The position numbers and the translations under genes were made by a program. A DNA stretch of 64,000 nucleotides from IMG/VR virus record IMGVR_UViG_3300017783_000003, positions 32,001 to 96,000 of that record; one strand, written 5' to 3'. Below, in pieces: positions 26,598-62,100 of the stretch (the stretch's first letter is position 1; each line of letters opens with the position of its first letter). The stretch is from a virus. A model generated the notes under the pieces. That model did no database searches. It saw only the letters and a list, made by a program, of their open reading frames with translations, and was not told the DNA's origin.

Positions 26598-27005
26598 ATG
26601 AACACCACACTCACCAATGAACTTGTGGAAGACTACACAGTCATGTTGTGTGATGCTCTCTACATGAACTTCAAAGAGTACCAGATCCGTGCTCACAAGC
26701 GTAGCATCGCTAATGACATCAACATGGACTATCATCAGTCCAAGATCGATTACATCATGGACAATGGTGCAGACATCGAATTCTATGTTAAGCGTGGTCG
26801 TCGTTACCTGAAGGTCATGATGAAGGATAGTGGTGGACATGGGTCTGTTCATGCCTTCATTGATCGTAGCAGTGGTAATGTGTTTAAACCCGCATCTATC
26901 AATGCACCAGCGAAAGGAATACGCTATAATATCCTTAAGGAAGGCGATCGTGAGTATCTCTACACTCATGCCGACTGGTCTGGTGGTTATCTGTATGTCA
27001 GATAA
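26598..27005 (+). CDS. Conserved phage early protein
   Basis: GRRYLKV...SVHAFID..G.VFKPAS..APAKGIRYN...ADWSGGYLY, a motif widespread in marine phages. Confidence 0.8.
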   Translation: MNTTLTNELVEDYTVMLCDALYMNFKEYQIRAHKRSIANDINMDYHQSKIDYIMDNGADIEFYVKRGRRYLKVMMKDSGGHGSVHAFIDRSSGNVFKPASINAPAKGIRYNILKEGDREYLYTHADWSGGYLYVR

Positions 27006-27040
27006 TCAACACATTTTCTACACAATTCACTGATTTTATC

Positions 27041-27229
27041 ATGCAATTTCAAAAGAAACCTTTCCCTCTTGGCACCAGCAATCCTTACATTGTACGTGGC
27101 ATCATTGGTTCTCATAAATGGGAACTAATCATTCGTGAATCACGTATTCGTATTGGCACTTATGCTAGTGAAAACGATGCTATTGATGTGCGTCGTATCA
27201 TGCTCCGTCGTGAAGGTTACGACGCATGA
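27041..27229 (+). CDS. Hypothetical protein
   Basis: ORF track; ATGA coupling to the next gene. Confidence 0.6.
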   Translation: MQFQKKPFPLGTSNPYIVRGIIGSHKWELIIRESRIRIGTYASENDAIDVRRIMLRREGYDA

Positions 27230-27366
27230 TTTGTGAAGTAAAACTGTACAAGGCAGGCAAAGTATTTGTCGAGACTGTACATGCAAGTAACTACCAAGAT
27301 GCAAGAGAAACTGCTCTTGCACGTAACCCTAATGCTAGTATTGTAGGTGTCACTGCTAAACTTTAA
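27226..27366 (+). CDS. Small conserved protein (46 aa, MICEVKLYKAGKVFVETVHASNYQDARETALARNPNA..)
   Basis: Translated by hand; family recognisable from cyanophages. Confidence 0.7.
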   Translation: MICEVKLYKAGKVFVETVHASNYQDARETALARNPNASIVGVTAKL

Positions 27367-27367
27367 C

Positions 27368-27529
27368 ATGGTAACCACACTCTCATACAATGAGTCAGAA
27401 TTTCTGATCTCTGCTATGCAACATCTATCCACAAAGAATGAGGCATTTCTACAACAGCAATGTGATGTAGACTCATCTAACCTGTACCAGAAACTACTCA
27501 ACATCATGGAGATTCAATGTGATGAATGA
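27368..27529 (+). CDS. Small hypothetical protein
   Basis: MVTTLSYNESEFLISAMQHL... Confidence 0.5.
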   Translation: MVTTLSYNESEFLISAMQHLSTKNEAFLQQQCDVDSSNLYQKLLNIMEIQCDE

Positions 27530-27656
27530 AGAACAACTGGACATCCTACAGCAGTATGAAGACGGAGACATTGATTGTCTCTTTGTCAAAGCAATCGAAG
27601 AAGAAGCAGCACGTCTTGAAGTAACAGTTGATTACTTCATGTACGAGTTTCTCTAA
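27522..27656 (+). CDS. Small conserved protein (44 aa, ..EEEAARLEVTVDYFMYEFL)
   Basis: Translated by hand; AA.LEVTVDY..EF motif typical of cyanophage early peptides. Confidence 0.65.
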   Translation: MNEEQLDILQQYEDGDIDCLFVKAIEEEAARLEVTVDYFMYEFL

Positions 27657-27683
27657 ATAAATCCATTCAGACACTGAACTATC

Positions 27684-27836
27684 ATGGTCGTATCAACGGA
27701 ACAAGCAAACTCTCTCATTCACGAAATGGAAGATCTAGTTAAATTTCTCCAAGATGAAAATGCAAGACTAAGAGTCGAGAATACGATCCTAAAGGATCAA
27801 GCGGACCTACCTGCGACTTTAGAATATGATTGTTGA
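27684..27836 (+). CDS. Small coiled-coil protein (50 aa)
   Basis: MVVSTEQANSLIHEMEDLVKFLQDENARLRVEN..; CTAAATA at 27653 upstream. Confidence 0.55.
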   Translation: MVVSTEQANSLIHEMEDLVKFLQDENARLRVENTILKDQADLPATLEYDC

Positions 27837-28083
27837 TGTAGTACATGATTTCGATAAACATCTCCAATCAGGACATGTTTATGAACTTAACATTGATTTG
27901 CCCATGAGTGACGGGGAGAGTGACACTTTCTATTCCGTCAACACATATGTTATTGCGTCATCACCCGAACAAGCACACTACATTGCTGCCTGTTTGTATC
28001 CAGACTCTCTCAGCATATGCTATGAAGAACAACCGATCACCGAGCGAAGATATGTATCCAGTCGGAGCACATGTGAAGATTAA
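27826..28083 (+). CDS. Hypothetical protein
   Basis: ORF track. Confidence 0.6.
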   Translation: MIVDVVHDFDKHLQSGHVYELNIDLPMSDGESDTFYSVNTYVIASSPEQAHYIAACLYPDSLSICYEEQPITERRYVSSRSTCED

Positions 28084-28225
28084 TGGTGTTCTTGGTCGTG
28101 TAGTCTTTTCTGATCCAGAATTACATACTATGTCTATCTGTATTCATGAACATCCTACTGACAGAAGCAAGAACACATGCCTTATCCATCAACCAGGACT
28201 CTCAAACGTTATTGAACCAGCATGA
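28052..28225 (+). CDS. Small hypothetical protein (MYPVGAHVKINGVLGRVVF..)
   Basis: Start reassigned within track ORF 27908..28225. Confidence 0.5.
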   Translation: MYPVGAHVKINGVLGRVVFSDPELHTMSICIHEHPTDRSKNTCLIHQPGLSNVIEPA

Positions 28226-28365
28226 CTTATCAAGAAGATCTCACTGTCGATTATTACAATGACGAAACACTTCGTCTCAAGATCCTACATGAAGCAGAGG
28301 AAATGATCTGCTACCAACCACAAGAAGATGAAGACCTGATTCAACTGCTTGACAATTTCGATTAA
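28222..28365 (+). CDS. Small acidic protein (47 aa)
   Basis: MTYQEDLTVDYYNDETLRLKIL..; ATGA coupling. Confidence 0.5.
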   Translation: MTYQEDLTVDYYNDETLRLKILHEAEEMICYQPQEDEDLIQLLDNFD

Positions 28366-28377
28366 CTCTGCTACAAT
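28349..28377 (+). promoter_or_regulatory. Host-like sigma70 promoter
   Basis: TTGACA-N17-TACAAT with TG extension; AGGAGG Shine-Dalgarno downstream. Confidence 0.8.
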
Positions 28378-28404
28378 CTGAAGACACCACTCTAGGAGGA
28401 ACCC

Positions 28405-28641
28405 ATGGTCTATGATGACTGTATGTACATTGTTGTAGGAAATATAGCGTTGGCGATAGACTACTCTGGTACAGCAATTTCTGCAGACATCATTCAAGAT
28501 GGTGACGTGGAATATGTTGACTGGGATGGTGCTGATCCTATTGATTGGATTGACCTACCACCAACACAATATGAATATTTTAAATCTTGTGTAGACTTCC
28601 TACAACAATTCTCTAACCAACCACAGGTATTCACTAAATGA
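28405..28641 (+). CDS. Hypothetical protein
   Basis: Strong AGGAGG Shine-Dalgarno. Confidence 0.7.
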   Translation: MVYDDCMYIVVGNIALAIDYSGTAISADIIQDGDVEYVDWDGADPIDWIDLPPTQYEYFKSCVDFLQQFSNQPQVFTK

Positions 28642-28856
28642 GACCATCCATTGTTGCCGATCACTTGAAAGAACTTATGGTTATTGTGGATGATAAACCA
28701 CAACCTAGAGAAGATCTCTCTACTAGAGAAAGAACTCTCTATTGGAGATATCATGGATATTTCCCTAATGAGTTTGCAAGAGCAGTTGCTGACATGATTG
28801 CTCCTAAGAAATTTATCTCTTATGATCATCTTCAGAATGTACTGACTTATGAATAG
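28638..28856 (+). CDS. Conserved cyanophage hypothetical protein
   Basis: KPQPREDLSTRE..YW..HGYFPNEFARA..YDHL.N motif; ATGA coupling. Confidence 0.65.
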   Translation: MRPSIVADHLKELMVIVDDKPQPREDLSTRERTLYWRYHGYFPNEFARAVADMIAPKKFISYDHLQNVLTYE

Positions 28857-29052
28857 TAAACAAACAAAAGAACAAGAGTCTGTTTCTAGACAGTCTGACC
28901 AAATCCTCCTATATTTCCAAGATCGTTTCCAAGAACTTATGGAAGATGATCGTATGGAAGATGCTATCGCCATTGGTGATGAATACTTAGAGTGGATTAA
29001 AGGTGATGATGATACTGTCTTCCTATATTACAATGAACACGAACTTAAATGA
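28849..29052 (+). CDS. Small acidic hypothetical protein
   Basis: ORF track; coupled starts and stops. Confidence 0.6.
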   Translation: MNSKQTKEQESVSRQSDQILLYFQDRFQELMEDDRMEDAIAIGDEYLEWIKGDDDTVFLYYNEHELK

Positions 29053-29639
29053 TTGACCTGTTTCCCACACCACTCTACATTGAACCAATTACAATAGAAG
29101 AAAACAATTGGGATAATATACGTATGGAGTCGTGTGGGAATGGTCTCACATCTGTTAGTCGAAACATTTTAAATATTCTCCCACTGTTAACTCAACAAGT
29201 ATACTATCATATAGATCAATACTTACAGTTGACAGGACATAAGACAAAAATTAATATTACATCATCATGGTTGAACTTTCATCGTTACATGGACTATGCT
29301 CAAACTCATTACCATTCTAACTCAATCATCTCTGGTGTGATATTCATTGTAATACCACCTAACAGTGGTAATTTCTGTATTCGTAAACCACACTCATTTA
29401 CCAAAGATTTCTCTATGGTAACTAAACTGAATACAACACATGATACATCATACAATACAGAAGAATTCATACTTAAACCAATGAATAATACCATTGCATT
29501 GTTTCCTTCTGTACTACAACATGATGTAACACCTAATTACACTGATCATACTCGAATTACCTTAGCATTTGACTGTGTACCAGCAGAATTATGCACATCA
29601 TATGGTAACTCACCATTAAACATCAGTTATTATTCTTAA
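29049..29639 (+). CDS. Putative 2OG-Fe(II) oxygenase (TIGR02466-like)
   Basis: LFPTP.Y, SWLN, HYHSNSIISGV, FPSVLQHDVTPN, RITLAFD. Confidence 0.85.
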   Translation: MIDLFPTPLYIEPITIEENNWDNIRMESCGNGLTSVSRNILNILPLLTQQVYYHIDQYLQLTGHKTKINITSSWLNFHRYMDYAQTHYHSNSIISGVIFIVIPPNSGNFCIRKPHSFTKDFSMVTKLNTTHDTSYNTEEFILKPMNNTIALFPSVLQHDVTPNYTDHTRITLAFDCVPAELCTSYGNSPLNISYYS

Positions 29640-29645
29640 GAATGT

Positions 29646-29757
29646 TTTTACACAGTTACTCAGTATACTCCGTAAAGGCACTCCGTAGTGACTGTAAGGG
29701 TTATTTGTGATACACTTTGAGGTTTTCAACAGGGTCTGTGGAAAAACCTGTGGAAAA
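29646..29757. promoter_or_regulatory. Cluster of DnaA-box-like 9-mers
   Basis: TTTTACACA 29646, TTTTCAACA 29723, TGTGGAAAA (=TTTTCCACA on minus) at 29737 and 29749. Confidence 0.5.
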
Positions 29758-29810
29758 CTAAATGTATTAAAAAACATAGGTAATGTATTGTAATGTACGG
29801 AGGTCTAGTT

Positions 29811-29839
29811 GCCTTAGCACGCCAGTCACCGAAAGTCAA
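29811..29839 (-). promoter_or_regulatory. Possible leftward sigma70 promoter
   Basis: Minus strand TTGACT-N17-TAAGGC with TG extension; the -10 is imperfect. Confidence 0.4.
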
Positions 29840-29849
29840 GGAGCAATAT

Positions 29850-29905
29850 GACAGTCCTCCAAGTGGCACAGAGACCTTGACAAACCCTCGGAAATCGAGT
29901 ATATT
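29850..29905 (+). promoter_or_regulatory. Early promoter with palindromic element (copy 3)
   Basis: GACAGT-N6-AGTGGCAC, then TTGACA-N17-TATATT. Confidence 0.8.
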
Positions 29906-30027
29906 GGGTACATCGAGGTTGAGGGATTGGCAACTTTCCTAAAAGTTCGATAAATCAGAAATCTCAAAAACTTAAAAAGTTTAAATAATGAGATTTTTTA
30001 ATTTTAAAAGTTAACCATTAACCATCT

Positions 30028-30264
30028 ATGACTTCTTTCACTAATTTGACTTCATCTGCTATTAACAAAGTAGAAGTAAATGACAGTAATGTTATGATTA
30101 CTTACACTACTAGTGGTAATGAATACAAATATGCTCTAAATGGTATTAATAGTGTTGATTTTGTCAATACTATGAATGATATTGTCCAAAATGGTCGTTC
30201 TGTTGGCAAATTCGTCAACAAATCGATCAAAGAGGACAAAACTCTTCAGATTATCTCAATCTGA
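30028..30264 (+). CDS. KTSC-like small protein
   Basis: TSSAI..V....V.ITY..G.EY.Y......SVGKFVNKSIK pattern. Confidence 0.55.
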   Translation: MTSFTNLTSSAINKVEVNDSNVMITYTTSGNEYKYALNGINSVDFVNTMNDIVQNGRSVGKFVNKSIKEDKTLQIISI

Positions 30265-30293
30265 CTCTAAATAGTACACAATTTCACCGAACA

Positions 30294-30455
30294 ATGGCAA
30301 AATCGAGTCAAAAATACACTGAATCCCCTAAAGAAACCTTTCGGGATGATTACGAGGATTTCGGTTATCAAGTCCAGAATAAGAAGCGTTATTCAAAAAG
30401 AAATAAACGCAAATCTAAATTCAAAGACGATGATGTGTACGCAGACTATGAATGA
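30294..30455 (+). CDS. Small charged protein (53 aa, MAKSSQKYTESPK..KKRYSKRNKRKSKFKDDD..)
   Basis: Translated by hand; CTAAATA late site at 30267. Confidence 0.6.
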   Translation: MAKSSQKYTESPKETFRDDYEDFGYQVQNKKRYSKRNKRKSKFKDDDVYADYE

Positions 30456-30488
30456 TACCAAAGTATGATGAATGATGCATCCCACCCA

Positions 30489-30544
30489 ACCAGTTCTAGA
30501 GGTGGCACACAGTCGCTTCCAGAGGGGTCTGGTGGGACTATTGT
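30489..30544 (+). promoter_or_regulatory. Early promoter with palindromic element (copy 4)
   Basis: ACCAGT-N6-GGTGGCAC, then TATTGT at 30539. Confidence 0.7.
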
Positions 30545-30569
30545 AGACAAGAGTCAACCAACGAATTCA

Positions 30570-30737
30570 ATGAAGGACTACGGCAACGGCATCCACGCTT
30601 CAAGTGACTGGTTAGCAGACATTGCTCGTCAGTGCATTGAGCGTGAGATGATGCAACGTCAAGCACGTCTAGCATCATACAAAGATGACGATGACAGTGG
30701 ACAGTGGGGAATCTGGAACATCAGCGACAGACATTGA
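30570..30737 (+). CDS. Early small protein (MKDYGNGIHASS..GQWGIWNISDRH)
   Basis: Start reassigned downstream of promoter copy 4. Confidence 0.6.
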   Translation: MKDYGNGIHASSDWLADIARQCIEREMMQRQARLASYKDDDDSGQWGIWNISDRH

Positions 30738-30755
30738 CCCCTGACCCTGTAGACT
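30700..30755 (+). promoter_or_regulatory. Early promoter with degenerate palindromic element (copy 5), inside the upstream CDS
   Basis: GACAGT-N6-TCTGGAAC, then TAGACT at 30750 with the same spacing as the other copies. Confidence 0.55.
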
Positions 30756-30779
30756 AATCAAGTAAACAAACACAAGACC

Positions 30780-31001
30780 ATGAACGACACGCTGATCAAC
30801 TTCCGAGACGAAGCACTCCGCCTAGTGGAAGAGGGACACGATGCCCAGCACATGTTGCTCTGCTGCTTAAAGTACATGAGTCAGGATGATGTTGAGGACA
30901 TGCTTAAGATGAATGAATTCATGAATCCTCCAGAAATGGAAGAAGATGAAGATGATTGGTTTACTGATCCTAACAGTGTTGCAAGTTATCATCATTATTG
31001 A
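30780..31001 (+). CDS. Conserved cyanophage early protein
   Basis: RDEALRLVEEG...LLCCLKYMSQDDVEDMLKMNE motif. Confidence 0.7.
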   Translation: MNDTLINFRDEALRLVEEGHDAQHMLLCCLKYMSQDDVEDMLKMNEFMNPPEMEEDEDDWFTDPNSVASYHHY

Positions 31002-31018
31002 AAACTTGTAAAAGTCAG

Positions 31019-31058
31019 AAAGTGAGATTTTTAAGAAAGTTAATTATCTCACTTTTTT
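31019..31058 (+). terminator. Hairpin with T-run after the early operon
   Basis: AAAGTGAGAT / ATCTCACTTT 10-bp stem followed by Ts. Confidence 0.45.
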
Positions 31059-31161
31059 CAATATTAAACTTTAAACATATTCTTTTACTATTAAACTTTA
31101 ACTGTTAAACTATAATAAGAAAATAGATTATTAAATAACAATATATTAACAATATACAATA

Positions 31162-31281
31162 TATTACTAATATAAACATACTGTCTATTACTAATACTAA
31201 CTCTCTAAGTATTACTAATACAAACTCACTGTCTATTACTAATACTAACTCACTGTGTATTAGTAATACTAATCCAATCTA
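31162..31281. repeat. Tandem array of five 24-bp units (TATTACTAATACTAACTCACTGTC-like)
   Basis: Units start at 31162, 31186, 31210, 31234, 31258; preceded by an AT-rich tract 31060-31160. Confidence 0.9.
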
Positions 31282-31295
31282 ATTGCATTCTTATT

Positions 31296-31481
31296 ATGAA
31301 CCCAACTCTAATGATTTCACTCCTCCGTAAAGGAAGAAATGGGGAAGAAATCCTCTCCATTCTTGATATCATCACCGACAATCCTAGCACCAAAGTGATG
31401 CAAACTGTCGAGGCGTTAGGTGACACTATCTCTCGGGGAGTTAGTATCAATCAAGGTAGTCCAGAACCCGTGGAAATCTAG
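31296..31481 (+). CDS. Small hypothetical protein (MNPTLMISLLRKGRNGEEILSILDII)
   Basis: ORF track; L+..+NG.E+L.ILD motif seen in cyanophages. Confidence 0.6.
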   Translation: MNPTLMISLLRKGRNGEEILSILDIITDNPSTKVMQTVEALGDTISRGVSINQGSPEPVEI

Positions 31482-31488
31482 TTACCAT

Positions 31489-31545
31489 GTGACACTAATA
31501 CTAGTGGCACAAACATTTACTTTTTGGGTGTGGATGCTGTATTGT
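31489..31545 (+). promoter_or_regulatory. Early promoter with palindromic element (copy 6)
   Basis: GTGACACT-N6-AGTGGCAC, TTTACT, then TATTGT at 31540. Confidence 0.75.
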
Positions 31546-31574
31546 AGTTTCAAGTCAAACAATTGTTTAAAACA

Positions 31575-32303
31575 ATGCTTCGCTTTTCACACGGTAACGC
31601 AAAACTTAACCGTAACACGGTTATTTTCAACTTGCCTGCAGGATTCACTTGCCCTGGTGCTTTAAATTGTCTCTCAATGGCGGTTTTAGGTGACAACGGC
31701 AAAAGGACAATTAAAGACGGTAAATTCACTGAATTCCGTTGTTTTGCTGCCTCCAGTGAGGTTCAATACGACGCAGTTTATAACAACCGTCAAGACAATT
31801 TCAAAACAATTGTTAAAGCATTGCGTGATGGAAATGCTGCTGATCTTATTAACGAAGGTTTGCAGAATGCACGTAAGAAAGCAACAACTAAGGTCAGGAT
31901 TCACGAGTCTGGCGATTTCTTCAATGCCGAGTATTTGATGGCGTGGGTGTTAGTTGCACAGCACAATCCTGATCTTAAGTTTTACTGCTACTCAAAGAAT
32001 CTTCCACTATTTGTTGGTTTGCAGTTGCCCTCTAATTTTTACTTAACAGCATCATATGGGGGTAAGTTTGACAACTTAATCGATGACGGGTTGTTTACAC
32101 GTTACGCTAAAGTTTTCATGTCTGAAGATGATGCAAACCGTGCGGGTCTTAAAGTAGACTCACAGGATAATTCTTGCTTCGAGAATGGTCCTTTCGCCCT
32201 GTTAGTTCATGGTACTCAACCCAAGGGATCTGACTGGGGGAAAGCATCACGAAACAACCGCAAGATTCAGAAGGCAAAAGTAAAACAACCTGTTGCCGCT
32301 TAA
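31575..32303 (+). CDS. GP88-like protein (Cys-triad, radical-SAM-like)
   Basis: GNAKL...FNLPAGFTCPGALNC...RCFAA...VRIHESGDFF...YCYSK motifs of the GP88 family. Confidence 0.7.
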   Translation: MLRFSHGNAKLNRNTVIFNLPAGFTCPGALNCLSMAVLGDNGKRTIKDGKFTEFRCFAASSEVQYDAVYNNRQDNFKTIVKALRDGNAADLINEGLQNARKKATTKVRIHESGDFFNAEYLMAWVLVAQHNPDLKFYCYSKNLPLFVGLQLPSNFYLTASYGGKFDNLIDDGLFTRYAKVFMSEDDANRAGLKVDSQDNSCFENGPFALLVHGTQPKGSDWGKASRNNRKIQKAKVKQPVAA

Positions 32304-32316
32304 GTGTAAACAATGT

Positions 32317-32373
32317 GTGCCACATGTATTTGTGGCACTAACATTTACCATTTGATTTTAAATCGTGTATTGT
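32317..32373 (+). promoter_or_regulatory. Early promoter with perfect palindrome (copy 7)
   Basis: GTGCCACA-N6-TGTGGCAC, TTTACC, then TATTGT at 32368. Confidence 0.8.
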
Positions 32374-32398
32374 ATATACAAGTTAATCAATTCTTTAC

Positions 32399-32608
32399 AT
32401 GTTGACCGCAAACTGGGCAGTTCAACCATCATCATGGAGCAATTTTGATCCTCACGGGTGTACGTGGGCAACCGACATTAATCACGCCTATCGTTTATTC
32501 AGTGCATGGAGTGAGGATGTAACAGTGTGGATTATTCCTCACAATGGTAATCCTTACCGTTGGACCACTAAGTTATACATAGAGGGGCAAAAAGATATTT
32601 CAAACTAA
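32399..32608 (+). CDS. Trp-rich small early protein
   Basis: NWAVQPSSWSNFDPHGCTWATDINHAY..GNPYRW. Confidence 0.6.
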   Translation: MLTANWAVQPSSWSNFDPHGCTWATDINHAYRLFSAWSEDVTVWIIPHNGNPYRWTTKLYIEGQKDISN

Positions 32609-32619
32609 TATCCAAAACG

Positions 32620-32671
32620 GTAGCAACCGATACCGTTTCACGGTTGCACCCTGCATCAAAACTGCTATGAT
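32620..32671 (+). promoter_or_regulatory. NtcA-type box upstream of a sigma70 -10
   Basis: GTA-GCAACCGA-TAC (GTA-N8-TAC) within CGGTA..TACCG; TATGAT at 32666. Confidence 0.5.
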
Positions 32672-32728
32672 ACGGATAAGCGAGGGGGGAGGAAACAACC
32701 CCACCGCCTAACACTTTCTTTAGATTTC

Positions 32729-33031
32729 ATGATCGCTTCAACTCGTTTCTTCGTTCTCACTAACAACGCAGAATCTCTTGCTCACGCTGTCATCAACAAC
32801 CCCAAAATTGTTGGACGCCGCCGTGCTGCTATGCTCTTTAATCTTGCCTTCTTGGGTAACACTAAAGCAGAACGAAAATTGGGTCGTGATGCACTCAAAT
32901 CCGCTGCAAAAGCAGCGAACCGTCATAAAGTTTTCTTTCGTGGCGAGGTGTTACATAGTGACCGTGTTTTCAACAAAGCATCAAACGCTAGGTTGCAGAA
33001 TTGGGCACAAAATGTTAACACCCCTGTCTAA
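32729..33031 (+). CDS. Basic hypothetical protein (100 aa)
   Basis: First ATG after the promoter; R/K/A-rich. Confidence 0.55.
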   Translation: MIASTRFFVLTNNAESLAHAVINNPKIVGRRRAAMLFNLAFLGNTKAERKLGRDALKSAAKAANRHKVFFRGEVLHSDRVFNKASNARLQNWAQNVNTPV

Positions 33032-33047
33032 GGGTTAGCATCACATA

Positions 33048-33063
33048 GGGGGAGCAATCCCCC
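33048..33063 (+). other. GC stem with GCAA tetraloop (intergenic hairpin)
   Basis: GGGGGA-GCAA-TCCCCC; no immediate T-run. Confidence 0.5.
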
Positions 33064-33089
33064 ACCTATTAATCACACTTTTCTTTCAA

Positions 33090-33365
33090 ATGTCTCTCTC
33101 CTTCGATATCGCTGATTCCATGATCTTTCGTGAGTTCAGTGATAGTGAATCATCTGCAATCCATTGTCTCTCAGTGTTACATAACAACGTAACAATTGGA
33201 TTCAAAAGTGATATCTCAAAGCAGTATATCTTCCGAGGTAGTGTTAAGTTTATCGCACACATTCGTGCCCTCTTAACTAACTGGAATTCCGATGAAATTA
33301 GCATCGGTTCAGTGATAGCGAAAGCACGTAAATCAGGAGATCTCGAAATTATCAACAATTTCTAA
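33090..33365 (+). CDS. Second KTSC-like small protein
   Basis: ESSAI..L.V....V.I.F.S...KQY.F......SIGSVIAKARK pattern. Confidence 0.5.
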   Translation: MSLSFDIADSMIFREFSDSESSAIHCLSVLHNNVTIGFKSDISKQYIFRGSVKFIAHIRALLTNWNSDEISIGSVIAKARKSGDLEIINNF

Positions 33366-33393
33366 TCTCTTATCTATTAATAATAGACAGTAG

Positions 33394-33421
33394 GCGATGT
33401 ATTCTTTACATCGCTTTTTTT
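33394..33421 (+). terminator. Intrinsic terminator closing the early region
   Basis: GCGATGTA-TTCTT-TACATCGC followed by T7. Confidence 0.75.
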
Positions 33422-33445
33422 ATGTGTAAAAATATAATGTTAATC

Positions 33446-33552
33446 AGCACTGTTTAATTATAATTACATAGCACTGTTTAATAGTTATTACACAGCACTG
33501 TTTAATTAATAACACAGTTAATCGTTATTAGCCCTTAATTGTTATTAAGCCC
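33446..33552. repeat. Three AGCACTGTTTAAT repeats at 24-bp period plus two TTAATYGTTATTA(A)GCCC repeats
   Basis: Starts at 33446, 33470, 33494; then 33518 and 33535. Confidence 0.85.
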
Positions 33553-33606
33553 GAGCGCCCCCAAAAAAGTACCTTCTTTCTAAGCTATAAACGTTTCCAG
33601 ACGCTC

Positions 33607-33614
33607 GATAAATA
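33607..33614 (+). promoter_or_regulatory. Late promoter (GATAAATA)
   Basis: TAAATA core upstream of the baseplate-associated operon. Confidence 0.5.
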
Positions 33615-33676
33615 TTAAGAGGAAATCCCAATCCAAAAAAATTCGCCCAGAAAAAAATACCCCCCAGAGTCGAGCA

Positions 33677-33895
33677 ATGAAAAACCGAGTTACTTACAAG
33701 ACTAAAGATGGTTCATTGAAAGAGCAAGTATTCGACGACTTCAATGAATTCGCAGATCTCGTACAGGATGCGGCAGTGGATTACTTCGCCACTGGCATGG
33801 TGCCTGAGATGAGTGTACTAAGTCAATACGATAATATGACAAAACAAGAAAAGGTGACTAATAATGAGCAACCAGAAAGAGAATTCCTTGACTGA
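33677..33895 (+). CDS. Hypothetical protein
   Basis: ORF track. Confidence 0.65.
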   Translation: MKNRVTYKTKDGSLKEQVFDDFNEFADLVQDAAVDYFATGMVPEMSVLSQYDNMTKQEKVTNNEQPEREFLD

Positions 33896-34040
33896 GAGGA
33901 TTGAGGCACTCGAAAATGTGCTCATGAATTTAAAGTTAATGTACAAACCCCCTGGCGGGGAGCATAAAAATATCACAGAATACTTAGATACGGTGGAGGA
34001 ACGATTAAATGCCCTTTCTAGTCGGCAAGACATCAGTTGA
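33864..34040 (+). CDS. Small conserved protein (58 aa, ..LMYKPPGGEHKNITEYLD..)
   Basis: Translated by hand; overlaps both neighbours. Confidence 0.55.
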   Translation: MSNQKENSLTERIEALENVLMNLKLMYKPPGGEHKNITEYLDTVEERLNALSSRQDIS

Positions 34041-34377
34041 TACTGCTGAGACTGATGGAAACTGCATATATCCTGCAAAGCCCTTGGGCGGGGCACCTAC
34101 CGTGTCTCCGAATGTCTTTGTGAACGGGTCACCGTTAGAAAGTTATGACGTTACGTCAGTACCTGACCAAGTTGATGGTATCAAAGTCAACCCATTGATT
34201 CCAGTACCGTGTATACCTGGAGTTAGGGTGGTGACTCCTGCTGTGAACCTTACAGTGTTTATAAACGGCACATTACCTGCAGTGCAGGGAGATGATTCAT
34301 CTAGGGTGGGTGGTATACCGAGAAAAATTGTAGGACCGTTTCAGCATCTGAATGTTCATATTGGATCTAACTTATGA
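34009..34377 (+). CDS. PAAR-like spike tip protein (gp5.4-like)
   Basis: SPNVFVNG..., TVFINGTLPAVQGD repeats; position upstream of gp25. Confidence 0.6.
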   Translation: MPFLVGKTSVDTAETDGNCIYPAKPLGGAPTVSPNVFVNGSPLESYDVTSVPDQVDGIKVNPLIPVPCIPGVRVVTPAVNLTVFINGTLPAVQGDDSSRVGGIPRKIVGPFQHLNVHIGSNL

Positions 34378-34880
34378 GTTTAATATATTATGACCAAGTA
34401 TTTGAAGATTTAAAAGATCTCGAATATATTTGTAGGACGAGAGAGTGGGTAAAGCATGAGAGACATGTAGAGCGTATGAGTTGTGCTCTAAGACCTTCTG
34501 AGCGTCTCGATCCTCATGAGATATACAATGTGTATACAAAGTATATTGGAGAGTACCATACATTCAAATTAAACCCAAGCAATGTCGATTGTAAGTTAGC
34601 ACAATACAAAGTAGGACAGTCCATGGGATGGCATGATGACTATGGTAGTCCTATTCCATATACAAATCAAAAGAATCCAGGTGGACGTAGACAAATTACG
34701 AGTATTACTTATATTAATGACGATTATGATGGAGGTGAGACAGAATTTAAGAATGGTACGTTAATTACTCCGAGGGCAGGATACACTCTTATATTCCCGT
34801 CACACTGGTCGTTCAGGCATAGAGGTAAGGAAGTAACCAAAGGGACCAAATGGATCTTTGTAGAGCACCTGTGGGGTTGA
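34374..34880 (+). CDS. 2OG-Fe(II) oxygenase
   Basis: MGWHDD, RQITSITYINDDYDGGETEF, FPSHWSFRHRG, TKW. Confidence 0.88.
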   Translation: MSLIYYDQVFEDLKDLEYICRTREWVKHERHVERMSCALRPSERLDPHEIYNVYTKYIGEYHTFKLNPSNVDCKLAQYKVGQSMGWHDDYGSPIPYTNQKNPGGRRQITSITYINDDYDGGETEFKNGTLITPRAGYTLIFPSHWSFRHRGKEVTKGTKWIFVEHLWG

Positions 34881-34925
34881 CAGGAGCGTTATGGGCGTGT
34901 TATACTGAGCGAGTTCAACTAAATA
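34877..34925 (+). promoter_or_regulatory. Tandem sigma70 (TTGACA-N18-TATACT) and late (ACTAAATA) promoters
   Basis: -35 at 34877, -10 at 34901, late box at 34918. Confidence 0.65.
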
Positions 34926-34932
34926 GTAAGTT

Positions 34933-35079
34933 ATGGCAAAACGTCCGTCGCTCACATCAAATGGTGTTTTTATCGAGTCTACTCCAAAGAAGTCTAGGCA
35001 GGGTCAAGGAAAGAATACAAAGTATGCAGCGTCTTCTAGGAATGGAGCAAAGAAGCCTTATAGAGGTCAGGGTAGATGA
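34933..35079 (+). CDS. Small basic conserved protein (48 aa, ..PKKSRQGQGKNTKYAASSRNGAKKPYRGQGR)
   Basis: Translated by hand; the YRGQG family is conserved near gp25 in cyanomyoviruses. Confidence 0.75.
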   Translation: MAKRPSLTSNGVFIESTPKKSRQGQGKNTKYAASSRNGAKKPYRGQGR

Positions 35080-35488
35080 GTGGATTCGCCGTTTAACGAA
35101 ACCCCAATTCAAAATGGGCGGATATAGCATCTGTCCATATGCTAGTAATGCCAAATATATTGTAATAGAATCGACAATTAGCGATGTCACTCCAGTTGTT
35201 GGAGTCGATGTCGCTATTTTTGTAATCAATCATGATATTACATTTGATCATTTGGTAGATTGGCGGAACTCGTTAAATAGGAGATATAAAGATTATATCT
35301 TTCTTGAGGATCACAAAGACGATCCCACTTTTATTAATGGAATTCAGACAAATTTCAACAAGGGAAATTTGATGCTTTGTCAAGAACGTACGGGTCTTTT
35401 AAAAGCAAGGAATACTTTGTCTAAAACAGAGTATTACGAATATTGGTCAACCGAAATGCATAGGAGGATTGTTAAAGATGGCAAATAG
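35017..35488 (+). CDS. Hypothetical protein (GGYSICPYA motif)
   Basis: Track ORF 34850..35488; the upstream part overlaps promoters, so the start is uncertain. Confidence 0.55.
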
Positions 35489-35651
35489 TCCAACAGACGT
35501 GAGTAGCGAATTTATCGAAGCGGGGATGACTCTGATATCACAACCAGCGAGCGACCGCTGGTTGAAGTTATCGAGTGACCGCAAAAAAACGAGGGAATTA
35601 AATCAGTTTCTTAGCAAATCAGAATGGAACGATGGATACGTTGGGAAATGA
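35478..35651 (+). CDS. Conserved small protein (MANSPTD..FIEAGMTLI)
   Basis: GGAGG Shine-Dalgarno. Confidence 0.65.
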   Translation: MANSPTDVSSEFIEAGMTLISQPASDRWLKLSSDRKKTRELNQFLSKSEWNDGYVGK

Positions 35652-35653
35652 AG

Positions 35654-35661
35654 ACTAAATA
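35654..35661 (+). promoter_or_regulatory. Late promoter (ACTAAATA)
   Basis: Directly upstream of gp25. Confidence 0.6.
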
Positions 35662-35673
35662 ATAAGAAACGTT

Positions 35674-36075
35674 TTGTGTCCAGTGCCGCAATTTCAGACT
35701 TTCAAAGATCTTTCCATCACTTTTAGAAAGCATCCCATCACAGACGACTTGATTGTTGTCAAAGGGGATGCTGCAATTAAACAAGCGGTTGTCAATTTAT
35801 TATTGACTAATCGTGGGGAAAGACTCTTTAATTCTGAAATTGGGTCTGGAATTACCAATTTATTATTTGAACCTCTAGATTATGGTACTGCAGCGTTAGT
35901 AAACGCAGAAATTACACGAACTTTAGAAGATTACGAACCAAGAATTCGTATCGAAACTCTAACAGTTGTGCCTAACTTTGAAGATAATGGTTTTGAAGTA
36001 GGTCTTGAATTTGAAGTTGTCGGTCGTGATGATTTACCACTAAACGTAGAATTCTTCTTAGAGAGATCACGATAA
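35674..36075 (+). CDS. gp25: Baseplate wedge subunit gp25
   Basis: FKDLSITF..HPITDDL..AIKQAV.NLLLT.RGERLFN..GS..LFEP..YEPRI. Confidence 0.92.
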   Translation: MCPVPQFQTFKDLSITFRKHPITDDLIVVKGDAAIKQAVVNLLLTNRGERLFNSEIGSGITNLLFEPLDYGTAALVNAEITRTLEDYEPRIRIETLTVVPNFEDNGFEVGLEFEVVGRDDLPLNVEFFLERSR

Positions 36076-37869
36076 ATGCCATACGCACAAGTCTCAAATT
36101 TAGATTTTGATGATATCAAGGTAGCACTCAAAGATTACTTGAGAGCACAGACTGATTTCACTGATTACGATTTTGAAGGATCTACCTGGAGCGTCCTGCT
36201 GGATGTTCTTGCTTACAATACATATTACACAGCATTTAACACTAACTTAGTTGTTAACGAGTTGTTCTTGGACTCTGCGAGTTTAAGAGACAATGTAGTT
36301 TCAATCGCTAAACAACTAGGTTACTCACCTAAGTCTGTAAGCGCCCCTATGGCGTCCATAACCTTCGAGGCTACCTTTGCTACCACATCACCCTCTGTCG
36401 CTGTTCTAAGGGCAGGTAGTGCCTTTACAACGGTCTTTGATGGCACATTATATCAGTATACTATTCTAGATGACGTATCAGCACCTGTATCTAACGGTGT
36501 TGCAACTTTCCAGAACGTTCAGATCTATGAAGGGTCTTTGATCAAAAATTCTTACCTTATTAATACAGCACTTAAGTCTACTCGTTACCTAATCCAAAAT
36601 CAGGGTGTAGACACTTCTAAGTTAAGAGTTAAGGTTTTTCCACAACAAGGATCGACTGCGTTTAATTATTTCAAACCAGCAGCAAATATTTTAGATATTA
36701 ACTCCCAGAGTGATGCATACTTCATCAATGAGATTGAAGATGAGAATTATGAACTTTTCTTTGGTGACGGTATTCTAGGTAAGAAATTAGAAAATGGACA
36801 GTTTGTTGAGGTTCAATACCTCGTTTCTAATGGAGCAGCAACAAATGGAGCAAAAACTTTCGTATTCAATGGTGTAATTGAAGATAAAAATGGAAACCCT
36901 TTCCAGTTAAGCACTACAATCACCTCAGTGACCCCTGCAACAGGCGGAGAGGCGGTTGAAACCATTGATAAGATCAAGTACAACGCTCCACGTTTCTACG
37001 GCACACAGAACCGTGCGGTGACCGCTCAGGACTATGCCGCTATTGTAAGAAATATTTACCCATCGGTTGCAGACATCATCACATATGGTGGTGAGATGGA
37101 GCAACCTCCAGAATACGGCAAAGTTAAGATTGTCGTTAAACCATCTAATAGTGATTTACTGTCTTCGTTTGTTAAAAACGAAATTAAGACAGAATTAAAG
37201 AAATATATGGTTGGATCTGTCATTGCAGACATTATCGACCCCTCTATTTTATATGTTGAGTTAACTTCCAAAATTTTCTATGATGGACAGAAGACTACTC
37301 TAATTGGTGAGGAGATTGTATCTAAAGTTAGATCTACTATTGAAAATTACATTGAAGTCTCTAATACAGAAAAATTCAATGGCAAATTCAGATATAGTAA
37401 GTATGTTGGTGTTATTGACGATGCCGACAGAGCAATCAATTCAAATCAGACTTCAGTCATGATGAGAAAGGATTTTTATCCTTTTATCAATTCTACAACT
37501 TATTACGAAGTTTGTTTTCAAAATGCTTTCTATCAAGATTGTGACGAACCTTCCGTTGTATCTACTGGGTTTAGAATCTCCGAATACCCAGACTATACCG
37601 TATATTTTGAAGATAGGGATGGCAGAATCGTCCTATATAGAATAGATGAATTTAATGGTCTAAAACTAGTATTAAATGATAATGCTGGTTACGTGAAGTA
37701 TGATGAAGGTGAAGTTGTAATAACTGATTTAACTGTTATTAAAGGGTCTTTTGAAGATAATAAAATTTCTATTAGAGTTCGTCCTTTAAGTAATGATATC
37801 AATGCCTTGAGAGAAGTTTATCTGGACGTTGATATGTCCCAAAGTAAGTTCACTGCATACAAAGAGTAA
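36076..37869 (+). CDS. gp6: Baseplate wedge subunit gp6
   Basis: LDFDDIK..DYDFEGS..LLDVLAYNTYY..FLDSASLR; FGDGILGK; QNRAVTAQDY. Confidence 0.93.
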   Translation: MPYAQVSNLDFDDIKVALKDYLRAQTDFTDYDFEGSTWSVLLDVLAYNTYYTAFNTNLVVNELFLDSASLRDNVVSIAKQLGYSPKSVSAPMASITFEATFATTSPSVAVLRAGSAFTTVFDGTLYQYTILDDVSAPVSNGVATFQNVQIYEGSLIKNSYLINTALKSTRYLIQNQGVDTSKLRVKVFPQQGSTAFNYFKPAANILDINSQSDAYFINEIEDENYELFFGDGILGKKLENGQFVEVQYLVSNGAATNGAKTFVFNGVIEDKNGNPFQLSTTITSVTPATGGEAVETIDKIKYNAPRFYGTQNRAVTAQDYAAIVRNIYPSVADIITYGGEMEQPPEYGKVKIVVKPSNSDLLSSFVKNEIKTELKKYMVGSVIADIIDPSILYVELTSKIFYDGQKTTLIGEEIVSKVRSTIENYIEVSNTEKFNGKFRYSKYVGVIDDADRAINSNQTSVMMRKDFYPFINSTTYYEVCFQNAFYQDCDEPSVVSTGFRISEYPDYTVYFEDRDGRIVLYRIDEFNGLKLVLNDNAGYVKYDEGEVVITDLTVIKGSFEDNKISIRVRPLSNDINALREVYLDVDMSQSKFTAYKE

Positions 37870-59106: not shown

Positions 59107-62100
59107 TGTAGCTAAAACAGATACCTTTGAAATTCAAAGGCAAAAAATTAATACGATATCAGAAAATGTATTTGCATTTGCTGCTGGTGGTAGTGATCTT
59201 GCTACAGGCAATCTGAAGTTGGGTGATGGTGAAAAGGATGTCCCATCGCTGGCATTTACTTCAGACTTGCAGTTAGGTTTATACAAATCATCGCAAAACA
59301 CAGCGACATTTGTTAGTGCAACAAAAAGAATTTTTGAATATAATAATGTAGGCTCTGTTTATTACAGAGATTTTATTATCAGGAAGACTACACTATTTAA
59401 TGAAGGAATTGAAATTCAATCAGTAGGTCAAAACTACGATGTAGGTAGTTACGAAGACATCTCTGCTTTTGGTGGTACTGGCGAGAGTGGATCGTTTAAC
59501 ATCAATGTTGCTGAATATTCTGGTTCTACTATTTCTGGTAGTAACTACGTATTCGTCGGTGCTGAAGGTGATGATCAATATAGTAATGTACCACTGCAAG
59601 GAGGTAATGGATCTGGCAATTTGGTCAACCTCACTTTTTCTAGTGGAGGATTTAGTGAAACTACAATCCAGCAATATGGTACTGGATATCAAGTAGGAGA
59701 TGTTCTTACTCTACCACCATCACAATCTGGTGTTTCTGGTACAGTTACAGAAGAACAAAATAATATAGCGGTATCTAGTATAGCTGGTATCGTCGAGGGT
59801 ATGATAGTAACCCAAACTGGTGGTGCAGGTGCTTTTGTAATACCAGAAGATATTGATGGCAACCCTTCAGATATTGTCGTTACTGGCGTTGATGCCGAGA
59901 ATACTGAGATTCAGGTAAACACCACTGCATCATCTTCAGGATCTGTAACATTAACTCTATCAGTTCCTTGGGGTAATTCTGGTAGTGGTTATTCATACAC
60001 CGTTGATAAACTTGGTGTTATCAACCAAATATCTGTTAATAACCCTGGTAATGGTTATGCAGGTGGTGATGTACTATCAGTAAATCCTCTGGACTTAACA
60101 GCATTTATTGATTACACAGTAACTACAGTTGAAGGTCAAGTAATTAACTTTACTGTAAACGTTCCTACTAATGCGTTTTCAGTAGGGTCAACTATTAGTA
60201 CAGTTGATCCATCCGATAGTGAAGCAATTGCAGCATCGGGAGATGTACTAGAAGTCACTATATCTGGTGGCGCTATCACAAGTATTTTAGTTTCATTTAC
60301 AGAAGGTAGTAGTGACGCTGGTTATAATGTTACTGGTAATGGCACATACACTGTAGATTCTGTAGACAATGCTGCTAGATATCAGATTGATACCACAGAA
60401 GATCAAAGTAACCCTCAATTATATCCAAATTTAACTTTATATAAAGATAACAAATATAGATTTGATGTTTCTAATGTTGGATCTCATCCATTCAAATTCA
60501 GTATTCATCAAGATGGTATTCACGCAGGATTTGAAGAAACTGTAACTCTTAGTGATTCTTCTGCTGATATCACAGTAGCAAGTTCTACTGGATTACTTGT
60601 TGGCATGTCGGTTACAACAAACAACAGTGCTAATGAAACAGGTGAAGTGGCAGGCGATACTGTAATTGAAGCAATCAATGGAAATACAATTACATTATCC
60701 GATATTCCACAGGTTGCTGGATCTGCTGTTCTTGTATTTGCTGGTGTTCAATATGATGAATCGGAAGTTAGTTATGCTGACGACTACGTAATTATTATAC
60801 CAGAATCCACTACACCAACACCTTTATATTACTACTGTGGTATACACCCAAAAATGGGCGGTACTGGCACACTTACTATCGACTACAACAATCCCAAAAC
60901 CTTTGGTACTGGATTTGAAGTTCTTGCAAGTGAAGTAGAAGCAGTTGATGTTATTACTGGTTCTGTTGCTGATGGAGAGTTTAATGTTTCTTCTATTACT
61001 GGTACTGATGTAACAGTAGAAAACATTCAAACAACAAATATTACTGGCACTGAAGCACAATTTACAAGAACAGTTACTCCAGAAGTTGCATTAGAAGTAA
61101 ACGCAGATAAAAGTTCATTAACTACTATCACTGCTTTAGGTGGAGAAATAATTCTTGGTGGTACATCTTTAAGTCTTGGCGACAATTTTACTGTCAATGC
61201 GGATACGGGAACTCTTAATACTAATGGTATTCTCAAGACTACTAACAAACTCAACATTAATGATTTTTTAAATATTGTTGATAATACTATTTCTGCTACC
61301 ACTAATAATAGTATTTTCATTGTTCCTGCTGCTGGTAAAATTACTAAAATTGATTCTGCAACAGCACTGATTATTCCTAAAGGTAACACAGCAGCAAGAC
61401 CTCTTGTAGGGCAGGTACAAGACGGTGCAATCCGTTTTAACAGCGAAACGAACCAGTATGAGGGTTATAGCGAAACAACGTCTTCCTGGTCCTCCCTGGG
61501 CGGTGTTAGAGACCTTGACGGTAACACATACATCGATGCAGAAGCATTCCCAGGCGCAAATGATAATACTCTGTATTTTTATAATGATAATGTTAACACT
61601 TTACAAGTAACAAGAAATTTTCTAGACTTTAGAAATACTAAAAAAATCAAATCTGCAAATACTACAGCACCAGAATATAGTAATTGGTTTGCTAACATTC
61701 CTGTAACAGTTACCACACCCACAACAAAACTCAAGTATAGAAACAATATATTTGAAGTTACTGTTGGTGGGGTAACAGCAACATCTGGAAACGAACCATC
61801 TGATACTAGTGGAGATGAATTTATCAATGGTACAGCAACTCTAAAATGGATTGCTTCTGCTGTAGATGCCCTCACATTCCAAGAAATTTCTGAAGTTCGT
61901 ATTGACCCATTTGGAGATACTCCACTTGTTATTAGTGGAGAACTTCGCTTTCTTAATAATGTAGTTTCTACAGATATTAATGATTTAGTTATTAGACCAA
62001 ATTCTGGTAAAAAAGTTTCTATTGATGCAGCAAGTTCTCTTAAAATTCCTGTTGGTGATAACAACCAAAGAGGTGCTGCAGTAATAGGTTCTATCAGATT

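Follow-up and report, generated by a model that had tools for sequence, protein, structure and literature searches.

DnaA boxes act as helpers in the iteron origins of plasmids and phages, among them P1 oriR, RK2 oriV, pSC101, and R6K gamma, and DnaA also regulates promoters, as in the autoregulation of dnaA or the stimulation of lambda pR. T4-like cyanophages are among the most abundant viruses of the ocean, and we know of no replication origin defined for them. The present analysis concerns a non-coding element harboring a tandem pair of perfect cyanobacterial DnaA boxes, at positions 29665-29910 of a 64,000-nucleotide (nt) stretch of viral DNA (IMG/VR record IMGVR_UViG_3300017783_000003, positions 32,001 to 96,000; hereafter "the window"). 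The window is contained in a 116,792-base (~117 kilobases, kb) contig of a T4-like cyanomyovirus, to which all contig-wide counts refer. The element is found in at least 19 named T4-like cyanophages and is tentatively read here as a docking site for host DnaA that may start or gate phage replication, together with phage factors and early transcription. Functional statements on positions 29640-33676 derive from the sequence.

At the bacterial chromosomal origin (oriC), the basal unwinding system comprises one or two tandem DnaA boxes of the species consensus and, no more than 16 nt away on their CACA side, a GC spacer and at least three DnaA-trios (NAN), according to the portion of PMC8287927 drawn on here, whose supplementary file 1 includes an example from Synechococcus elongatus. 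The species-specific DnaA box of cyanobacteria is TTTTCCACA (PMC4674748, in part). In phage T4, oriE depends on an early promoter and possesses evenly spaced 12-nt repeats, the role of which is given as unproven in the part of PMC3016281 used here; R6K-type origins are mentioned in the same part. The annotation of the T4 record puts oriE within gene 5, with the PAAR gene 5.4 and gene 6 lying 1.4 kb downstream. For cyanophages, a literature search with subscription journals largely outside its reach returned no description of DnaA boxes or of a defined origin.

A conserved pair of DnaA boxes

The pair is formed by two perfect boxes on the minus strand, TTTTCCACA-GGT-TTTTCCACA, at 29737-29757 (29737-29745 and 29749-29757), with a period of 12 base pairs (bp). 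Read on the plus strand, it is TGTGGAAAA-ACC-TGTGGAAAA, TGTGGAAAA being the reverse complement of TTTTCCACA. A third, degenerate box, TTTTCAACA (one mismatch), lies at 29723-29731 on the plus strand, inverted relative to the pair, and a DnaA-like 9-mer, TTTTACACA, at 29646-29654 is not conserved in relatives. The four DnaA-box-like 9-mers listed in an initial annotation of this DNA are therefore all present, two of them perfect. Perfect boxes are not enriched in the window (3 versus 1.46 expected, 3 being reached in 18 of 100 shuffles), so that the weight of the finding rests on adjacency and conservation. The whole contig holds five perfect boxes, and the only adjacent ones are those of the pair.

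Besides the contig of the window, itself partial, the analysis covered the complete genomes of five relatives (Sf-FR1, S-CAM1, S-CAM3, S-RIM32, and Syn1). The element carries 3, 2, 3, 3, and 3 perfect boxes in the five genomes, respectively, for totals per genome of 7, 12, 12, 5, and 7, as compared with 1, 0, 2, 5, and 2 for a reversed-pattern control. It is the sole tight cluster of perfect boxes in all five, except for one inverted pair in S-RIM32 (NC_031235, 61859-61880), located 1 kb downstream of the main cluster. In Syn1, a single extra box at 59749 has a similar offset.

The alignment of the element comprises 21 non-identical sequences, the rows of which were selected for carrying the box pair; the pair is invariant in 21/21 under this selection. 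A third box with at most one mismatch occurs within 30 nt of the pair in 13 of the 21 relatives, in direct orientation in seven and inverted in six. Evidence of conservation independent of row selection comes from similarity searches. With megablast, S-CAM1 and S-CAM3 match positions 29669-29885 and share nothing else of the 4-kb interval. A blastn search with 29660-29915 matches 54 records, all from cyanophages, 13 of which cover at least 80% of the query; they include S-PM2, Syn1, S-RIM32, S-RIM44, S-CAM1, S-CAM3, S-CAM4, S-WAM2, S-H38, and DSL-LC03, as well as four ACG-2014 phages and five Sf phages. Most of these records have no annotation at the matching site. The closest named relative of the contig is Synechococcus phage Sf-FR1, with 82.6% identity across 88% of the interval 29640-33676.

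The element also occupies a fixed genomic place. In Sf-FR1, S-CAM1, S-RIM32, Syn1, and S-PM2, it comes after the gene of a 2-oxoglutarate-Fe(II) (2OG-Fe(II)) oxygenase, from which no more than one or two small open reading frames (ORFs) separate it, and a small ORF of the phrog_4357 / T4-GC 805 kind lies downstream. In the window, the oxygenase gene (PF13759) is found at 29049-29639 on the plus strand and the phrog_4357 gene at 30028-30264, the place held by T4-GC 805 in Syn1 and S-PM2. The gp25 gene (35674-36075, plus strand), named by synteny with Sf-FR1, Syn1, S-CAM1, and S-RIM32, is located 5 to 6.4 kb downstream of the element in the window and in these four phages. No oxygenase is annotated in the stretch examined of S-CAM3, where the element is still found in the same small-ORF context. 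In the S-PM2 record (NC_006820, 17673-20780), the RefSeq transfer RNA features overlap protein genes and the DnaA-box element, and their coordinates look misplaced.

The invariance of these perfect, high-affinity-type boxes, and a total of 43 boxes versus 10 for the reversed-pattern control over the five genomes, would also be expected of a decoy, by which the multiplying phage genome soaks up host DnaA and halts initiation on the host chromosome. A decoy is nevertheless very unlikely, as a sink needs neither fixed synteny nor conserved flanking blocks, and merely two to three clustered boxes are available per genome.

Organization of the element

The boxes are embedded in a series of conserved blocks. 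Block A (29670-29689, plus strand) is a small hairpin, CC-N5-GG, followed by CACTCCGTAGT; it is kept in most of the 21 aligned sequences, with CTCC/GGAG and CCCC/GGGG variants, and the aligned consensus after the hairpin is CACTCCnTAGT. A variable A/T-rich stretch lies between Block A and the pair and is the site of the third box in the 13 relatives mentioned above. Directly after the pair comes Block D (29758-29782), a conserved A/T-rich segment, CTAAATGTATTAAAAAACATAGGTA, with a -10-like hexamer on each strand; over the 21 elements, this block aligns as CTAAATGnnTTAAAAAACATAGGT. It is followed by TAATGT repeats (29781-29796, plus strand), the copy number of which varies among relatives from one to several. 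Blocks E-F (29808-29839) consist of GTTGCCTTAGC, a variable spacer of 16 nt, and GTCAA, with the consensus GTTGnCTTAGC then GTCAA and a spacer length that is fixed across the aligned sequences. A further conserved block is seen in the alignment between GTCAA and a sigma-70-type promoter (see below).

These blocks are specific to phages. Out of 401 cyanobacterial genomes, 101 match the element, essentially over the box pair only, and Blocks E-F have no match in the 401 genomes; the element as borrowed host DNA was thus rejected. The alignment has single-base gaps as well as insertions of about 10, 12, and 30 nt, which speaks against a coding role. A structured RNA was rejected as well, since Rfam gives no match in the element at E-values up to 1 and RNAalifold no consensus fold on either strand (-2.74 kcal/mol for plus and -0.03 kcal/mol for minus over 300 columns, with a double change in one of ten pairs). 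Single-sequence folds of the element have z-scores of -1.3 and -1.2, computed with mononucleotide shuffles, and the three weak, chance-like Rfam matches within 27000-37000 all fall outside the element. Three further motifs were discarded: an NtcA-like site, GTA-N8-TAC (29789-29802), is not kept in relatives as read from the alignment, and neither AGTGGCAC as a general upstream promoter motif (2 in the window versus 1.23 expected) nor TTAGC-N14-18-GTCAA as a general motif (2 versus 0.78 expected in the window) stands out.

Transcription signals around the boxes

The best promoter of the region is an early sigma-70-type promoter, TTGACA-17-TATATT (29877-29905, plus strand; 11 of 12 consensus matches). 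The aligned TTGACA is present in about half of the relatives, the remainder having an extended -10 further on. This promoter is directed away from the boxes, and its transcript starts purine-rich before running into an AT-rich leader, the GC fraction of which, 0.20 at 29950-30049, places it among the six most AT-rich 100-nt windows of the contig. A transcript entering an easily unwound tract is what a transcription-primed origin of the T4 type has. The leader contains a hairpin with a U run (29957-30005, plus strand; fold of -22.9 kcal/mol, z-score -2.6), a terminator or attenuator, and it could be an attenuator, an RNA of about 90 nt, or a primer-type transcript.

Closer to the boxes, a TAT(G/A)TT hexamer on the minus strand is located 15 nt before them in 21/21 elements, and a TAnnnT hexamer on the plus strand follows ATAGG in 17/21, with a box-to-hexamer spacing of 23 nt in 18/21. 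The promoter scan calls neither hexamer, both of which lack a -35, and gives no minus-strand site between 29600 and 29900. The leftward promoter over the boxes in the initial annotation hence holds as a conserved -10-like hexamer, not as a complete, called promoter.

As conserved -10-like hexamers flank the boxes on both strands, a purely transcriptional role stays alive. DnaA would then act as a transcription factor only, and the boxes between two promoters would sense the replication or energy state of the host, with DnaA either blocking the leftward TAT(G/A)TT transcript or substituting for the missing -35 of the rightward TAnnnT, 23 nt off. The constancy of both hexamers and of the 23-nt spacing speaks for this, as do the lack of DnaA-trios (see below) and the light-dependent binding of DnaA to DNA in S. 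elongatus (PMC6478999, in part). It resembles DnaA-regulated promoters in that boxes are found within tens of bases of -10-like hexamers, and it differs from them in the want of a -35 and of a regulated gene on the minus strand, the genes accepted as real in 28000-36000 being all on the plus strand. About 100 nt of conserved phage-specific blocks would be left unexplained, and a single site per genome is not a regulon. We regard a role limited to transcription as the main alternative, if an unlikely one.

The box arrangement in other viruses and in bacteria

The exact 21-mer formed by the pair and its linker occurs in at least 119 IMG/VR viral contigs and at least 121 bacterial contigs, some instances being clearly coding repeats. 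Among the matches listed, 106 non-redundant viral instances were compared: a further box with at most one mismatch lies at most 60 nt away in 65 of them, a perfect one in 47, and box density reaches 6.98 per kb near the pair versus 0.99 per kb beyond 150 nt. Among repeated non-homopolymer 6-mers on the TTTT side of the pair, TAATGT ranks first (8 of 81 representatives, versus none of 81 on the other side), and a looser version of the motif is found 19 times on that side versus 4. In bacteria, the pair is often surrounded by further boxes in origin-like clusters, for example in Microcoleus, Acidobacteriota, and Firmicutes metagenome-assembled genomes. A pair with any 3-nt linker was found in 72 of 301 sampled cyanobacterial genomes, the reversed control in none.

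Host-type clusters of DnaA boxes may be common in several phage groups. The IMG/VR contigs L009, L011, L015, L105, and L116, among others, which are unlike the T4-type element, carry clusters of four to five boxes in both orientations around the 21-mer; no named phage was matched usefully by these non-T4-like contigs. The 5.2-kb record of Microvirus mar31 (MZ089777) matches the DnaA-box repeat region at four places.

A candidate docking site for host DnaA

With short repeats, AT-rich DNA, and an early promoter next to the box cluster, the element can reasonably be read as origin-like or as a control site. We tentatively favor a docking site for host DnaA by which phage replication is started or gated. 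Host DnaA would bind the boxes early in infection and cooperate with phage factors that occupy the TAATGT repeats and the neighboring phage-specific blocks. A contribution would come from transcripts of the flanking early promoter that enter the leader of GC 0.20, with its terminator hairpin, and the opening of the DNA by all of these would start or gate the first rounds of phage replication. Such a mechanism would be akin to that of plasmid and P1-type origins, with DnaA boxes as helpers, and to that of T4 oriE, with its need for an early promoter.

Like bacterial oriC, the element displays tandem consensus boxes in the same orientation, and its 21-mer is identical to that found in bacterial box clusters. 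It differs from oriC in that DnaA-trios are not enriched, the A/T-rich block is found across the boxes from its place in oriC, and the remainder has no host counterpart. Three or more trios occur in 4 of the 21 elements, and the mean trio run is 2.10, versus 2.13 in shuffles; an oriC-type unwinding module was accordingly rejected, and the element is not a copy of one. In the absence of trios and with the A/T-rich block on the other side, DnaA would be a helper or a sensor rather than the sole unwinding machine.

Several observations weigh against DnaA docking at a replication start. Besides the trios, it is the TTTT side of the boxes that carries the conserved A/T-rich block, the reverse of the oriC layout given in the part of PMC8287927 used here. 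There is no turning point of GC- or AT-skew at the locus, and perfect tandem pairs occur in few of the small (1.6-2.9 megabases) cyanobacterial genomes sampled. The -10-like hexamers on both strands suit a purely transcriptional role equally well, and T4-type phages are not, to our knowledge, known to need DnaA.

Both the binding of DnaA and the start of replication are, moreover, sequence-based predictions, and the flanks of the boxes are phage-specific. The same two facts are consistent with a TGTGGAAAA repeat bound by a phage protein, its identity with a DnaA box being coincidental. Such a coincidence is very unlikely: the match to the host consensus is exact, the tandem spacing of 12 bp recurs in the 72 of 301 cyanobacterial genomes and in other phyla, and further boxes are present in either orientation, which is also the case for oriC regions.

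The 24-bp arrays and the AT-rich tract

The interval 29640-33676 contains two separate things, the DnaA-box element and a set of 24-bp repeat arrays. The very AT-rich tract of the initial annotation (31060-31160) is present and is the most AT-rich of the contig: GC is 0.14 at 31050-31149, and the 100-nt window from 31077 has the contig minimum of 0.12, the next lowest being 0.19 and the contig mean 0.38. It comes after an intrinsic terminator (31019-31060, plus strand; hairpin z-score -4.7, then a T run) that closes the preceding early genes, and it is adjoined by array 1 (31162-31281). As read from the sequence, array 1 has five 24-bp units with a palindromic 11-bp core, TATTA-S-TAATA. Tandem Repeats Finder (TRF) reports 4.6 copies of period 24 at about 31162-31272 (score 145), and a repeat search four overlapping 48-nt copies, 24 nt apart, up to 31281. 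The core is kept in Sf-FR1, its central base flipping between C and G, and this tolerance suits the site of a dimeric protein. Decayed coding repeats were rejected as the origin of array 1: one frame is open across it in the window, has a stop in Sf-FR1, and is listed with no start-bearing ORF.

Array 2 (33446-33517, plus strand; period 24, score 100) has three 24-bp units, each of AGCACTGTTTAAT and 11 nt. It shares CACTGTyTAwT with the array-1 unit in our reading of the sequence, and both array cores are unique in the contig. An inverted array-1 unit is located at 33375-33392 on the minus strand, 54 nt upstream of array 2; it is 94% complementary to 31179-31196 and conserved in Sf-FR1. The two arrays of equal period and the inverted copy in the initial annotation were thus recovered, and the arrays proved to be related. 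Array 2 comes after the strongest intrinsic terminator of the region (33394-33421, plus strand; z-score -7.8), at the end of the early genes. Ahead of the PAAR/gp25/gp6 module, it is followed by GATAAATA (33607-33614, plus strand), which is likened to a T4 late promoter on the basis of TATAAATA, taken here to be the consensus of such promoters. A 16-bp unit, AAAAAAATnCCCCCAG, is found twice at 33636-33669, just upstream of the first ORF of the late module, and is conserved in Sf-FR1 and in a related contig (L001 6503-6536; L284 4718-4751).

By TRF and a scan for 8-mer clusters, the arrays were found in the window, in Sf-FR1, and in one IMG/VR contig of the same lineage only. No arrays were found in the corresponding intervals of Syn1, S-CAM1, and S-RIM32, three phages that retain the box element. 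The conserved core thus does not include the arrays, which would form, with the AT-rich tract, an accessory, lineage-restricted module. In a divergent contig, G001, three DnaA boxes and the downstream blocks described above are followed, in this order, by a TTGACA-17-TATAAT promoter, small ORFs, a phrog_4357-like gene (33% identity, E-value 5.6e-11), a homologue of the 61-residue protein described below, a hairpin, and a variant array of TTATTAsTAATA(A/G)ACAG units directly before late-promoter-like motifs. Boxes, phrog_4357, the 61-residue gene, and the array stand in the same order as in the window, within 2.1 kb, and array, phrog_4357, and the 61-residue gene hence recur at the early/late boundary.

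The 61-residue gene (31296-31481, plus strand) lies beside array 1, as its homologue does beside the variant array in G001. A single-protein search with its product returned nothing, and its relatives were found with an alignment query. At 7 of the 26 loci where a relative was found, a tandem array of period 20 or more is present within 400 nt, and these arrays are unrelated in sequence; the link to arrays is loose, and the protein was rejected as their binder. Its Atlas matches all score below 0.9, and its model is poor (predicted local distance difference test score of 0.51).

The arrays probably bind a small, dimeric DNA-binding protein of the phage at the early/late boundary. They could also have no link to replication and serve as operators or insulators at which a small repressor sets the timing of the early-to-late switch in the adjacent baseplate operon. 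A palindromic 11-bp core with a flippable central base is typical of the sites of dimeric regulators, and array 2, like the array of G001, is preceded by the last early terminator and followed by late-promoter-like motifs. A candidate regulator could not be pinpointed, however, and most relatives manage without arrays; we consider this operator role improbable.

The initial annotation had instead joined everything between 29640 and 33676 into one hybrid oriC/iteron origin, or a packaging or control site, possibly served by small proteins encoded inside it. The box cluster of this proposal is real, unique, and conserved; a single 4-kb device is not borne out. Conservation across relatives, set beforehand as the test, is found for the box element and stops at close kin for the arrays. 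Arrays, AT-rich tract, and twin hairpins are 1.4 to 3.7 kb away from the boxes, arrays are missing from three genera that keep the element, and terminators and promoters divide the interval into ordinary early transcription units. Searches of the neighboring ORFs against Pfam, PHROGs, PDB sequences, and the Atlas returned no Rep-like family, no DNA-binding fold, and no initiator-like protein among the small genes. On the other side, these 4 kb contain three of the contig's six 100-nt windows of lowest GC, the arrays are unique in the contig, G001 keeps the compact order described above, and the repeats of T4 oriE have the same 24-bp period and likewise lie at the head of the baseplate genes. 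All considered, a single composite origin has a low probability.

The resemblance to iteron origins is partial. Both have, at a single site of the replicon, a few DnaA boxes next to AT-rich DNA and short direct repeats. Tandem repeats adjoin an AT-rich tract at array 1 (GC of 0.12) and where TAATGT lies beside Block D; TAATGT is within a few hundred bases of the boxes, and the 24-bp arrays are 1.4 and 3.7 kb from them. The locus differs in that no Rep-type initiator gene was found beside the element in the searches named above, that the TAATGT repeats are short and variable in number, and that the replicon here, a T4-type phage, is lytic and has a replisome of its own.

T4 oriE, to which the R-loop origins oriF and oriG may be added, resembles this locus in its early promoter, in its place where the baseplate gene block begins, close to the PAAR gene 5.4, and in the 24-bp period of its evenly spaced repeats. 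The oriE repeats are six copies of exact 24-bp period (NC_000866, about 79400-79570) that encode, in our codon reading, an eight-residue repeat of the V-x-G-N type in gene 5, with an origin role given as unproven in the part of PMC3016281 used here. They may be coding repeats rather than protein-binding iterons, and the common period is perhaps a coincidence, since they lie in coding sequence. In contrast to the present locus, oriE has no DnaA boxes, and the array sequences are unrelated; no counterpart of its repEA and repEB was detected here. That both lie at an early/late junction where the baseplate genes begin is nonetheless worth noting. The oriE repeats also contain AGGTAATGT, a word present in the cyanophage element as well, probably by chance.

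Neighboring genes

About ten small early-type ORFs separate the first oxygenase gene from the PAAR-like gene (34009-34377, plus strand), and a second oxygenase gene is found between the latter and gp25. The first gene after the element (30028-30264, plus strand) belongs to phrog_4357 (E-value 6.9e-21), and its Sf-FR1 homologue is annotated as a KTSC domain protein. A second phrog_4357 paralogue lies at 33090-33365 on the plus strand (E-value 7e-9). The two KTSC-like genes proposed for the ends of the interval are therefore a paralogue pair of phrog_4357, and their KTSC assignment is not supported by Pfam: neither ORF matches KTSC (PF13619) at the curated cut-off, and the G001 homologue gives an E-value of 0.058 and 13.6 bits for a cut-off of 25. 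In the nearest named Atlas cluster, 19% of the members carry KTSC, with a score of 0.81, a lead only. A PDB sequence search with the 30028 ORF gave nothing below an E-value of 0.6.

The twin hairpins of the initial annotation are present within two modules of 82 nt, each a hairpin with a promoter-like sequence and 73% alike, at 31488-31569 and 32316-32397 (both plus strand; hairpin z-scores of -4.2 and -3.6). The first comprises a hairpin and a promoter-like TTTACT-18-TATTGT, which comes from our own reading and is not in the scan list. The modules bracket a GP88-family gene (PF17338; 31575-32303, plus strand; E-value 8.8e-40), and the whole looks like a self-contained expression cassette; a PDB sequence search with this gene returned nothing below an E-value of 0.6. 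Further downstream, at 34933-35079, a very basic ORF of 48 residues overlaps the 34850-35488 ORF in another frame. It matches a G001 ORF (66.7% identity over 48 residues, blastp E-value 4.8e-18) and, of the two, may be the real gene at this place.

Implications for cyanophage replication

As a possible site at which replication starts or is controlled in T4-like cyanophages, the element is the best candidate to date. Being conserved, single-copy, about 250 bp long, and easily mutated, it makes the question of the cyanophage origin directly testable. If DnaA acts here, a T4-type phage would depend on the initiator of its host, which would be unexpected. The occurrence of the same box cluster in many unrelated viral contigs suggests a widespread strategy.

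In S. elongatus, the binding of DnaA to oriC drops in darkness and with 3-(3,4-dichlorophenyl)-1,1-dimethylurea (DCMU) or DBMIB (2,5-dibromo-3-methyl-6-isopropyl-p-benzoquinone), as reported in the part of PMC6478999 used here. On these grounds, a more far-reaching proposal can be made, possible though doubtful: cyanomyoviruses, and probably other cyanophages with box clusters, would leave the start of replication to host DnaA, whose binding to DNA in cyanobacteria would require ongoing photosynthetic electron flow, the element being both the missing cyanomyovirus origin and a light and energy gate. If true, phage replication would be tied to the light-dependent activity of DnaA in the host, and such a gate would account for the light dependence of cyanophage DNA replication.

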